This document shows positions 35,510-37,205 of a stretch of 64,000 nucleotides of DNA, piece by piece. The stretch's first letter is position 1, and the number at the start of each line of letters is the position of its first letter. The notes under the pieces were generated by a model. That model worked only from the letters and a program-made list of their open reading frames with translations. It was not told the DNA's origin and ran no database searches. A program made the translations under genes and the position numbers. Source of the stretch: Escherichia phage vB_EcoM_AYO145A; sequence record KR014248; one strand, given 5' to 3'.

Positions 35510-35770
35510 TGGCAGATTTTTTATAAGGCTACTGCCATCCTTCCATACCTTACCTTACCACACCTAACCATACCTAACCAAACTACACCATACAATACCT
35601 TGTTAAAAGACCCTTTTAAAGACCTTTTAAAAAGGTAAGTCTCATTTTAATGTAGTTGAGACTAGCTACCCATACTTTACCTTACCATACCAGACCTCAC
35701 CCCGCCTTACCGCACCAGACAGCACAATGCAGTACAGTACCTTATTAAAAGACCCTGTTTAAAGACATTT
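35510..35770 (-). repeat. composite intergenic repeat unit 1 (pentamer-phased GG/CC tracts, conserved core, covarying hairpin)
   Basis: The plus strand reads runs of NNNCC pentamers (ATACC TTACC TTACC ACACC TAACC ATACC TAACC ...) at 35537-35600 and 35665-35740. The 49-nt core at 35616-35664 is identical to 37038-37086. Hairpin TGGCAG (35510-15)/CTGCCA (35532-37). Confidence 0.85.
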
Positions 35771-35797
35771 TAAAAAGGAGCCTCCGAAGAGGCTACC
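35771..35797 (-). terminator. rho-independent terminator after the two-gene cassette
   Basis: The minus strand reads GTAGCCTC-TTCG-GAGGCTCC-TTTTTA, directly after the stop of 35806..36246. Confidence 0.7.
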
Positions 35798-35805
35798 TAG
35801 TCAAC

Positions 35806-36246
35806 TTAGAAAGGTTTTCTACGTTGCTTGTTAATATTAGCTTTCATAGCAGCTAAATGGTTTTGCTGTTCAATTAGTCGTGAACGTTCTTGATGACTAA
35901 GTGCCATAGTGTTCACATTCTCAATTGCTTGAGTGGCTTGCTTTAAAGCGCGACCAATCTTACCAGACATTTTACGTTTTGCAATAGTTGCTTGATGCTT
36001 AGGTTCGACAACACGATAACCAACACCCATTGAAGCAACCAGATAAATCTTCTCTTCTTTAAGAAGCTTCTCAATAAACTTCTCAAGTCGATTTAAGCGT
36101 GTAAGTGCGTAAGCTTTCATTTCATCTTCGTACTTAACAATGTCACCTTGATAAGTTGGCTTCACAATACCTAAGAAGGTATCCATCTCAGAGTGTGATA
36201 CAGTGTCACCGTAACTAAACTTTGCTGCTAATGCTTTTGTATTCAT
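35806..36246 (-). CDS. hypothetical protein (cassette gene 2)
   Basis: 146 aa with a basic, coiled-coil C-terminus. Followed by a minus-strand terminator. Confidence 0.65.
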   Translation of the reverse strand: MNTKALAAKFSYGDTVSHSEMDTFLGIVKPTYQGDIVKYEDEMKAYALTRLNRLEKFIEKLLKEEKIYLVASMGVGYRVVEPKHQATIAKRKMSGKIGRALKQATQAIENVNTMALSHQERSRLIEQQNHLAAMKANINKQRRKPF

Positions 36247-36248
36247 AA

Positions 36249-36836
36249 TTAAACGTTACCTTCTGAAATAACTTCTACAGAAAAACGACCAAAGCGTGGA
36301 CGCCAATCACCTACACCACAAAGGTTACCAGCATTTTCAAGAACCATCAGAAGTTCCTCTTTGGTGATTTGCTCTTCATCGAACATCAAACCGAACTCTA
36401 CAGACCAGTCACGGAAGATTGGACGGTAGCTCATAACTCGTGCTGTACCAATCTTAACAGACTTAGCATAGATGAAGTCTGGATTCTTAGCAAGTTCTTG
36501 TGGGTTTGCTGGGCAGTTCTTGATAGTCATTGGGAAGACTACATCTGTCAGCATAATGGCTCGGTCAATTACCTTACCAAGTTTGTTGAGTTTTGCACCA
36601 GACTTGATACAAGCCTCAATCATCTCACCGTTCATAACAAAACCTAGCTGCTCATCGTAGTAACAAGAAGTTACCAGTTGGCTTTCTGCTAAGAGCGCAT
36701 AGTCTTCGTCAGTCTTTTTACGTTTACTGGACAGAGACTTGTGATATTTCGTCAGAGGGTTTAATGGGTCTGACAACGTATCGTTATGGCTCAAAAAAGG
36801 ACGAGTACCAGTGATTTTGATATTTAACAGTTTCAT
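36249..36836 (-). CDS. hypothetical protein (cassette gene 1)
   Basis: Track ORF 36249..36851 starts at GTG. The ATG at complement 36834-36836 has GGAG 9 nt upstream. Confidence 0.65.
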
Positions 36837-36911
36837 AGCATTTAGCTCCACACTTTAGTTGATTGTTAAGTTGTTTGTAAAGAACCCTCAACAGAAGACT
36901 CTTTAGAAACT

Positions 36912-37205
36912 TGGTAGATTTTTAACGTGGCTACTACCATCCACCCATACCATACCGAGCCTTACCTTACCAAACCAGACCGCGCCTTACCAAACCAGAC
37001 CAAACATTACTTTACCCTACCTCATTAAAAAACCCTCTTAAAGACCTTTTAAAAAGGTAAGTCTCATTTTAATGTAGTTGAGACTAACTACCCATACCGA
37101 ACCTCACCGCACCATACTACACCTGACACCACCTTACACCACCTTACACCACCGCACCATACCTGACCGAGCTACACATCACTTAAAAACCCTCTTAGAA
37201 GACTC
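36912..37205 (-). repeat. composite intergenic repeat unit 2 (direct repeat of unit 1)
   Basis: Pentamer tracts at 36935-37025 and 37087-37175, including 11 consecutive NNNCC units. Core at 37038-37086. Hairpin TGGTAG (36912-17)/CTACCA (36934-39), which covaries with unit 1. Confidence 0.85.

Follow-up and report, generated by a model that had tools for sequence, protein, structure and literature searches.

The 64,000 nucleotides (nt) of Escherichia phage vB_EcoM_AYO145A considered here (sequence record KR014248; the window, below, is this whole stretch) share 91-96% identity with many Felix-O1-like myoviruses of the genus Felixounavirus; Salmonella phage DaR-2019b gives the best DNA match (95.8%). 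Around positions 35510-37273 every gene is encoded on the minus strand, as the first-pass annotation of this DNA had it. In the direction of transcription, a DNA ligase gene (37281-38417) is followed by a 429-nt gap, an open reading frame (ORF) of 195 or 200 amino acids (full span 36249-36851), an ORF of 146 amino acids, a 387-nt gap, and an ORF of 127 amino acids. Each gap houses two tracts of phased pentanucleotide repeats. The region is almost certainly a type II locus of VIPR (Viral Interference Programmable Repeat), a phage-encoded, CRISPR-like system of RNA-guided DNA silencing described in two 2026 preprints (bioRxiv 10.64898/2026.04.26.720920, 10.64898/2026.04.26.720927), and falls in the clade of phage phiSUSP1 (SUSP1). 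The 195- and 146-residue ORFs are the genes of Vipr and of its accessory protein Vap1, while the four tracts would be transcribed from the minus strand as guide RNAs (vrRNA1 to vrRNA4), two on either side of the vipr-vap1 operon (Table 1).

Table 1. Features of the VIPR locus in the window, with two example satellite islands from E. coli chromosomes.
Feature	Position	Strand	Repeat tract; CC-to-CC spacings on the plus strand	Description	Guide NN
Sigma-70-type promoter	37246-37273	-		TTGACA-N16-TATACT, 11/12 consensus matches; just 3' of the DNA ligase gene	
vrRNA1 5' box	37177-37215	-		Imperfect 19-nt inverted repeat CATCACTTAAGAG..CTTAAGTGATG, 79% complementary; abuts the first repeat unit	
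vrRNA1	37060-37176	-	37087-37175; 5 (x4), 10, 7+3 (x3), 5 (x3)	17 YNNGG units (37176-37092); 3' tail 37091-37060	GT TC CA AT GC GG AA GG AA GG CA GT AT GC GA TC AT
vrRNA2	36912-37019	-	36935-37025; eleven consecutive 5s, then 15	15 YNNGG units (37019-36945); tail 36944-36912, hairpin TGGTAG...CTACCA	AG AA AA TT CT TT AA GC CT TT AA AA TC AT AT
vipr	36249-36836	-		195-aa single-RRM RAMP protein, Cas7-like fold	
vap1	35806-36246	-		146-aa Vipr-accessory protein; 100% identical to the gene beside vipr in SUSP1	
Intrinsic terminator-like hairpin	35779-35794	-		AGCCTCTTCGGAGGCT then T run; 3' of vap1, 5' of the downstream vrRNAs; kept in SUSP1	
vrRNA3	35638-35739	-	35665-35740; 10, 5, 5, 5, 5, ..., 5, 5	14 YNNGG units (35739-35670); pseudoknot-type tail 35669-35638	AC AC AT GC CT GC AA GG GA CT AT AA AA AT
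vrRNA4	35510-35597	-	35537-35600; 4, then 5 (x7), 10, 10	11 YNNGG units (35597-35543); tail 35542-35510, hairpin TGGCAG...CTGCCA	AT AT GT TT TA AT TA GT AA AA AT
Sigma-70-type promoter of the next gene (127 aa)	35463-35491	-		TTGACA-N17-TATTTT	
Example island L248	2482-15163				
Example island L250	1287-14043				

On the sense strand the tract repeat has the form GGYNN (Y, pyrimidine). The spacings of CC on the plus strand bear out the four tracts, the 5-nt phase, and the eleven consecutive steps of the first-pass annotation. Its statement that irregular units measure 10 nt and keep the phase holds in part: these units mostly stay in the 5-nt phase, but some amount to 15 or 7+3 nt. The phasing was scored as the number of CC pairs 5 nt apart in 60-nt windows, with a threshold of at least 5. 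Over the 64 kb this score is reached only in these intergenic regions (maxima 7, 7, and 11), the vrRNA1 tract lying below the threshold, whereas scores stayed at or below 5 in all 100 first-order Markov simulations of the full window. In composition-matched simulations of the individual tracts, the observed counts were reached in 30, 40, 13, and 119 of 2000 trials. The four CC-phased tracts are the sole ones in the window, and GG-phased tracts on the plus strand are absent from it. The search elsewhere that had been proposed adds none in the remaining 44 kb of the 95%-identical relative MK965970. Two direct-repeat units, also noticed at first pass, are 159 nt long, 80% identical, and 1422 nt apart. 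The phased tracts are real and highly non-random.

The strong sigma-70 match of the promoter at the head of the locus agrees with its earlier identification, and it reads (37273 to 37246) into the upstream repeat unit (repeat unit 2, with vrRNA1 and vrRNA2) and on into vipr and vap1. An identical promoter sequence stands ahead of vrRNA1 in SUSP1. At the other end, the promoter of the 127-residue ORF is the downstream boundary of the VIPR locus and lies outside the system.

The identity of the two proteins carries the assignment. The 195-residue protein and SUSP1 Vipr have 192 of 195 residues in common (98%), and a search of PDB sequences with its profile returns entry 36pp, “SUSP1 Vipr protein” (E = 3.9e-80). 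The preprints define the clade by more than 90% protein identity to SUSP1 Vipr (10.64898/2026.04.26.720920,.720927), a value that 192/195 exceeds, which places the locus in the SUSP1 clade. The 146-residue protein is in turn 100% identical to Vap1, and by these two identities the locus is assigned to type II VIPR. The conserved Vipr contact residues (H17, K33, R39, E71, M72, K82, G87, K88, R138, C173, D177, W178, and R179) comprise those that hold G1, G2, and Y3, the base skipped in the target, and the non-target strand, and all checkable published ones are kept. To note, position 175 is a valine in both the window protein and the GenBank SUSP1 sequence, whereas the preprint gives T175. The AlphaFold (AF2) model of the protein has a pLDDT of 95; submitted to Foldseek, it returns as top matches the Csm3/Cas7 subunits of CRISPR complexes of types III and VII (E ~1e-5, probability 1.0). 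A C-terminal motif resembling the G-loop of RAMPs, a loop rich in glycine, is conserved across 39 Vipr homologues. Annotation is scarce in this family: every one of the more than 500 Vipr homologues is annotated “hypothetical”, a Pfam analysis of six neighbouring proteins gives no match for the 195- or the 146-residue protein, and PHROGs places them in phrog_4652 and phrog_5926, respectively, both of “unknown function”. Taken as a whole, the locus combines the features of VIPR, namely a RAMP with a G-loop, the contact residues, an adjacent vap1, flanking vrRNAs, structured tails, and a guide match to a mobile element. The 195-residue protein, which the first-pass annotation had suggested for pull-down with the tracts, would be, by its identity to SUSP1 Vipr, their binding partner.

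The preprints describe Vipr as a minimal RAMP found mostly in phages and prophages, and the vrRNA as 9-16 YNNGG repeats followed by an invariant structured tail, a pseudoknot in the SUSP1 clade (10.64898/2026.04.26.720920,.720927). Structures reveal that Vipr protomers polymerise on the vrRNA, one per GGYNN unit (10.64898/2026.04.26.720927). The GGY triplet is sequestered and the NN dinucleotide presented, so that double-stranded DNA (dsDNA) is read by a “1-nt-skip” code with a target of the form (xNN)n; the Vipr filament forms an R-loop triplex that silences transcription, and Vap1, a predicted DNA binder, enhances VIPR-mediated protection (10.64898/2026.04.26.720920, 10.64898/2026.04.26.720927). 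Small-RNA sequencing and pull-down identified the SUSP1 vrRNAs as discrete RNAs of ~100 nt co-purifying with Vipr, and silencing was demonstrated with GFP reporters and with lambda cro/cI (10.64898/2026.04.26.720920,.720927).

By analogy with SUSP1, Vipr of the present phage would polymerise along the body of each vrRNA, one protomer per unit, with each GGY flipped into protein pockets and the two N bases offered for pairing. The 5-nt phase of GG would then be the footprint of one Vipr protomer and the variable positions the guide. The filament would read dsDNA by the gapped code, skipping one base per unit, and the resulting R-loop triplex would block transcription, an effect that Vap1 may strengthen. 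We infer from the SUSP1 data that all four vrRNAs are expressed. The Vipr-bound RNAs of SUSP1 also favour the earlier view that the tracts would act as minus-strand RNA, although as discrete transcripts of ~100 nt rather than as the single leader of ~390 nt then proposed.

Each tract, read on the minus strand, comes with a conserved 5' box and a conserved 3' tail, and would be the repeat body (11-17 units) of a vrRNA of ~90-115 nt. Two types of box exist, CACTTAAGAGTCTTCTAAGAGGGTTTTTAAGTGATG or CCTTTTTAAAAGGTCTTTAA.AGGGTYTTTTAA..AGG (alternative box AAAAGGTCTTTAA.AGGGTYTTTTAA); one or the other precedes every tract and they are found almost nowhere else in the window. The vrRNA1 box is identical to those of SUSP1 vrRNA1 and vrRNA4. 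These boxes may serve as a processing signal, a promoter, or a 5' handle. A sigma-70 promoter inside the internal boxes (TTAAAA-N18-TTTAAT) was considered and rejected, being a weak match read by hand and unflagged by the promoter scan. The tails are also of two types, their structures being deduced from sequence complementarity alone. Those of vrRNA1 and vrRNA3 follow the pattern GTAG(T/C)T AGTCTC AACTAC N8 GAGACT, which permits an H-type pseudoknot: in vrRNA1, GTAGTT/AACTAC may interleave with AGTCTC/GAGACT. Both tails are near-identical to their SUSP1 counterparts, which for vrRNA1 are the pseudoknot tails found on vrRNA2 and vrRNA3 of that phage. The vrRNA2 tail is the same as that of SUSP1 vrRNA1, and its hairpin differs from that of vrRNA4 by a compensatory change (U-A to C-G in vrRNA4).

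Conservation within the repeat body was analysed over 278 units of 21 vrRNAs from 8 Felix-like phages. Y is a pyrimidine in 100% of cases, and conservation of the last G reaches 99%. At NN the sequence varies, giving 16 distinct guides among the 21 vrRNAs, while boxes and tails are conserved; the vrRNA3 guide is found identical in phages Mushroom and DaR-2019b. A 10-nt block, TGGTGTAAGG, is present three times in vrRNA1 (37092-37176, minus strand) and twice in the related Felix-like IMG/VR contig L051. This difference in block copies suggests that guides change by slippage in multiples of 5 nt, together with point changes.

This distribution of constant and variable positions bears on the initial interpretation of the tracts as a protein-titrating or attenuator RNA, whose GGU repeats would wrap a TRAP-like ring or sponge a CsrB-like regulator and so control downstream translation or termination. 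The idea is a natural one, as the repeats are phased and on the sense strand, repeat unit 2 stands between promoter and gene, and in VIPR a protein oligomer does bind, with one subunit on each repeat. The likeness to the TRAP-trp leader RNA of Bacillus is real: there too each subunit of an oligomer reads one repeat, a conserved triplet set off by 2-nt spacers, on single-stranded RNA of ~11 or more repeats. TRAP, however, is a closed 11-mer ring that reads (G/U)AG and attenuates in cis; in VIPR the triplet is GGY, the protein a RAMP filament, the information lies in the spacers, and DNA is targeted in trans. Of the ring-shaped oligomer first envisaged, one subunit per repeat stands, while the closed ring gives way to the open right-handed helical filament of a Cas7-like RAMP. 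Furthermore, GGY is neither (G/U)AG nor a GGA in hairpin loops, the 1-nt-skip rule matches NN to an external DNA target, and repeat unit 1 follows the terminator with no downstream gene of the system to regulate. Neighbouring proteins have no Pfam match to the TRAP or CsrA family, and an Rfam scan of 34500-38000 gives no relevant family at the E-value threshold. As NN are hypervariable between near-identical phages with conserved flanks, the tracts are better explained as programmable guides in which the variable NN would specify a DNA target, and a sponge or attenuator is very improbable.

The association of tracts and protein can be followed beyond the Felix-like phages. A DNA-pattern scan of IMG/VR with (GGTNN)6GG gives at least 120 loci. 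Among the matches listed, 51 loci have degenerate, non-microsatellite tracts with the consensus GG-Y-N-N and 8-18 units per tract. Clustering of the ORFs of these 51 loci (up to ~15 kb per locus) yields one dominant family of ~190-230 amino acids, present in 30 loci, directly beside the tracts in the loci inspected, and homologous to the 195-residue ORF of the window (blastp down to 3e-55). A profile search likewise identifies a Vipr homologue in 30/51. As loci found by a DNA pattern encode a Vipr homologue, tract and protein constitute a module that is conserved in phages of very different kinds. In 185,579 bacterial and archaeal genomes the same pattern returns almost only simple pentanucleotide microsatellites.

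It could also be argued that the plus strand is the functional one. The plus-strand tracts are C-rich and G-poor (41-47% C, 0-12% G, a YC dinucleotide every 5 nt; 26 C and no G in 64 nt in the vrRNA4 tract), and antisense transcripts might carry them as rut sites at which Rho terminates antisense transcription. GGY repeats, however, automatically give a C-rich antisense strand. The promoter scan found no plus-strand promoter leading into the tracts, among the IMG/VR matches listed the flanking genes have the G-rich strand as their sense strand at 57 tracts, with 13 the other way round, and in SUSP1 it is the G-rich RNA that is detected and Vipr-bound. A role as rut sites has therefore next to no probability.

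Equally little weight is given to the tracts acting as DNA or as a transcription-induced structure, be it a G-rich R-loop or two-quartet G-quadruplex origin, a T7-gp4-type primase array (GGGTC/TGGTC-like), or iterons. The extreme strand asymmetry and AT-rich spacers would suit such an element, and some IMG/VR matches are indeed (GGGTC)n arrays. Yet phage Felix O1 replicates without three of the four tracts and both genes, and about half of the Felix-like records have no vipr. Across unrelated phages the tracts travel with the RAMP protein and not with replication genes, an origin or primase array predicts no hypervariable NN with an invariant GGY, and SUSP1 produces discrete small RNAs bound by Vipr. 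Rut sites, two-quartet G-quadruplexes, and DNA iterons, which the first-pass annotation had offered as alternatives, are unneeded as explanations. Besides the T7-gp4-type primase arrays and the R-loop/G-quadruplex origin, the candidates considered and dropped were RecA/Chi-like GT-rich recombination hotspots, Shine-Dalgarno-like ribosome standby sites or mRNA stabilisers, periodic elemental RNA polymerase pause sites, boxA/ops-like antitermination signals, and an anti-rut leader. From none of these would one expect hypervariable NN, or tracts inherited together with a RAMP in unrelated phages. The earlier literature contributes little: these tracts are not among the repeats given in the Felix O1 genome paper (PMC3185647), the PhageMaP paper on Bas63 has nothing on this intergenic region, searches by motif (GGUNN and similar) returned only noise, and a search for Felix O1 RNA-seq found none.

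With the VIPR assignment, the locus can be compared with its closest relatives. It resembles that of SUSP1 in its order (ligase, intergenic region, vipr, vap1, intergenic region, 127-residue gene), its 5' boxes, its two tail types, its YNNGG grammar, its upstream promoter, and in at least one guide aimed at a SUSP1/Felix-type satellite. It differs in the distribution of vrRNAs (two upstream and two downstream here, 1 + 3 in SUSP1), in its guides, none of the four being equal to a SUSP1 guide, in one vrRNA of 17 units with a 10-nt block repeated thrice, and in its host phage, a Felixounavirus instead of a Suspvirus. With the Cas7/Csm3/Cmr4 filaments of class 1 CRISPR-Cas it has in common the RAMP fold with an RRM core, glycine-rich loop, and thumb, and the polymerisation of subunits on a guide RNA with bases flipped out at a fixed period. 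This period is 5 nt in VIPR (GGY sequestered, two paired) and 6 nt in Cas7 (five paired). Unlike class 1 CRISPR-Cas, the VIPR guide is noncontiguous and the system is phage-encoded, with one RAMP gene and one accessory gene, and without a repeat-spacer array, adaptation, or other cas genes. Neither a CRISPR repeat-spacer array (identical repeats of ~24-40 nt) nor an Rfam CRISPR family was found at the locus. It has been proposed that VIPR is an ancestral, virus-borne relative of CRISPR effector complexes (10.64898/2026.04.26.720920,.720927).

In the SUSP1 clade, 18 of the 20 identifiable guide targets lie in a satellite parasitising the phage (10.64898/2026.04.26.720920,.720927). When complete E. 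coli genomes are searched with the locus by BLAST, a vrRNA-tail-like sequence turns up in 152 chromosomes. It sits in a satellite-like island of ~10-12 kb (E. coli chromosomes, L246-L254) that encodes a serine recombinase, baseplate and tape-measure proteins, an HNH endonuclease, and small ORFs. Compared with proteins encoded in the window, its baseplate protein is 68% and its tape measure 32% identical. At least three insertion sites exist: beside wrbA, in a DUF72-domain gene downstream of yecD, and beside tonB; several copies are riddled with insertion sequence elements. Four of the six islands scanned for tracts possess one vrRNA of their own (11-15 units, tail GATTGTCGTAGCCACGTTAAAAATCGAC). 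Satellite-encoded vrRNAs are also noted in the VIPR preprint (10.64898/2026.04.26.720920,.720927). As vipr and vap1 were not found in the islands, use of the island guide would need Vipr from a helper phage.

Read by the 1-nt-skip rule, vrRNA4 matches 18-20 of 22 NN positions (82-91%) at one conserved site in six of nine satellites. Shuffling the NN order (n=500, over the first six satellites) gave at most 19/22, versus the 20 observed. The matched 33-bp site, AATGCTAGTATTGTATATATAGGTTAACAGAAT, overlaps both the -10 hexamer and the start region of a promoter (TTGACA-N17-TAGTAT, extended -10 TG); the first gene of the long island operon follows ~30 nt downstream. As a positive control, SUSP1 vrRNA2 matches the satellite tape-measure gene at 24/30. 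Within the window, none of the four guides has a self-target (best 73%, the null level). From this match, we infer that the -10/start region of the satellite promoter is the biological target of vrRNA4, which would silence the main leftward promoter of this ~10-kb satellite of the E. coli chromosome. The satellite harbours homologues of the phage baseplate and tape-measure proteins; with its promoter silenced, the locus would protect the phage from a parasite.

Several points weigh against the VIPR assignment or against parts of it. Both VIPR sources are preprints, and the mechanism for this phage is wholly transferred from SUSP1. With 17 units, vrRNA1 is one above the published range of 9-16; three of its units read TGGTG in place of YNNGG, in violation of the GG rule, and the first four units of vrRNA3 have TG instead of GG, so that these two guides may have decayed in part, or be loaded in part only. 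As for vrRNA4, its match includes two mismatches and shares its AT-richness with promoter DNA generally. For vrRNA1 to vrRNA3, no target with at least 75% NN match was found in the nine satellites, 9-unit sub-guides included, a null result that agrees with the success rate of ~50% (20/41 guides) in the preprint. Scanning IMG/VR for exact target patterns of the four guides gave no match.

Close relatives differ in the number of tracts: Mushroom has three and Felix O1 one. The latter is devoid of vipr and vap1, although it keeps the upstream promoter. Its single vrRNA-like tract of 11 units (NC_005282 57632-57913; L004 5633-5914), with imperfect GG in four units, is chimeric, with a vrRNA1-type 5' box and a vrRNA4-type tail (TGGCAG..CTGCCA). 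Because one chimeric vrRNA remains behind an intact promoter, the loss of vipr and vap1 looks like recombination between the flanking vrRNA units. More widely, the vipr gene is present in about half of the Felix-like records (116 at 90% identity or more, out of 229 with a DNA match). It is tempting, if rather unlikely, to see the guide-only “orphan” vrRNAs of Felix O1 and of the satellites as functional free-riders. If loaded onto the Vipr that a co-infecting or helper phage supplies in trans, such orphans could redirect it or act as decoys, and guide piracy among phages of a single genus would then be part of VIPR conflicts. No mention of the vipr-less Felix O1-type orphan was found in the VIPR preprint.

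Other repeats were met in the course of the scans. A near-invariant 32-nt sequence, GGTTAGGTTAGGTAAGGTTAGGTTAGGTAAGG, occurs in many otherwise different IMG/VR contigs (L006, L010, L018, L022, L040, L041, L070, L073, L076, L111, L112, L114, and L124), with short direct repeats (for example TATACAAGATG TATCCAAAATG GATACCCA) ahead of it. No Vipr homologue came up in these loci, which lie outside the ORF set searched for Vipr because their low unit diversity excluded them from the degenerate-tract set. The element may be a different one (iteron-like or end-associated) or a low-complexity single vrRNA. Ten IMG/VR loci (L007, L029, L049, L056, L071, L089, L090, L100, L103, and L115) contain perfect (GGGTC)n microsatellites of 6-8 units, directly after terminator-like hairpins in several of them and near the contig end in L029 and L049; L089 also has a Vipr-profile match. 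GGGTC is the preferred recognition site of the T7 gp4 primase. A distant VIPR-like locus, L019 3300-5330 (IMG/VR_UViG_3300031873_000001254), has at least 12 tracts and an array architecture very unlike the Felix/SUSP1 type: several tracts lie directly between a terminator and the ribosome-binding site of small genes, nine form a gene-free array of 900 nt with AT-rich spacers (TTTGCAATCATTTATAATTTATAAAAATA), and a ParB-like gene (DGFHR motif) is found within the locus. In the window itself, a 27-nt tandem repeat (CACAGCCACACAGTCGGTATTGGTCT; 2.7 copies, 89% match) at 28652-28721 is probably within a structural gene; in Felix O1 the tail-fibre genes 76 and 77 have repeats in common (PMC3185647).

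The first-pass annotation knew of no such element, a statement overtaken by the 2026 preprints. The element is already known, as it is described for the 98%-identical SUSP1 system, and the window adds nothing categorical to it. The locus is a clean additional instance of VIPR, a system that uses a new gapped code of RNA-DNA recognition, and its value is confirmatory and practical. A functional RNA was spotted from the sequence alone, and the association of tract and protein can be recovered just from DNA patterns. The phage offers a natural guide-target pair with a plausible target, vrRNA4 versus the -10/start region of the satellite promoter. Finally, the Felix-like phages form a natural deletion series, with four, three, or one vrRNA and with or without vipr, that is useful for studying guide turnover and the conflict between phages and their satellites.

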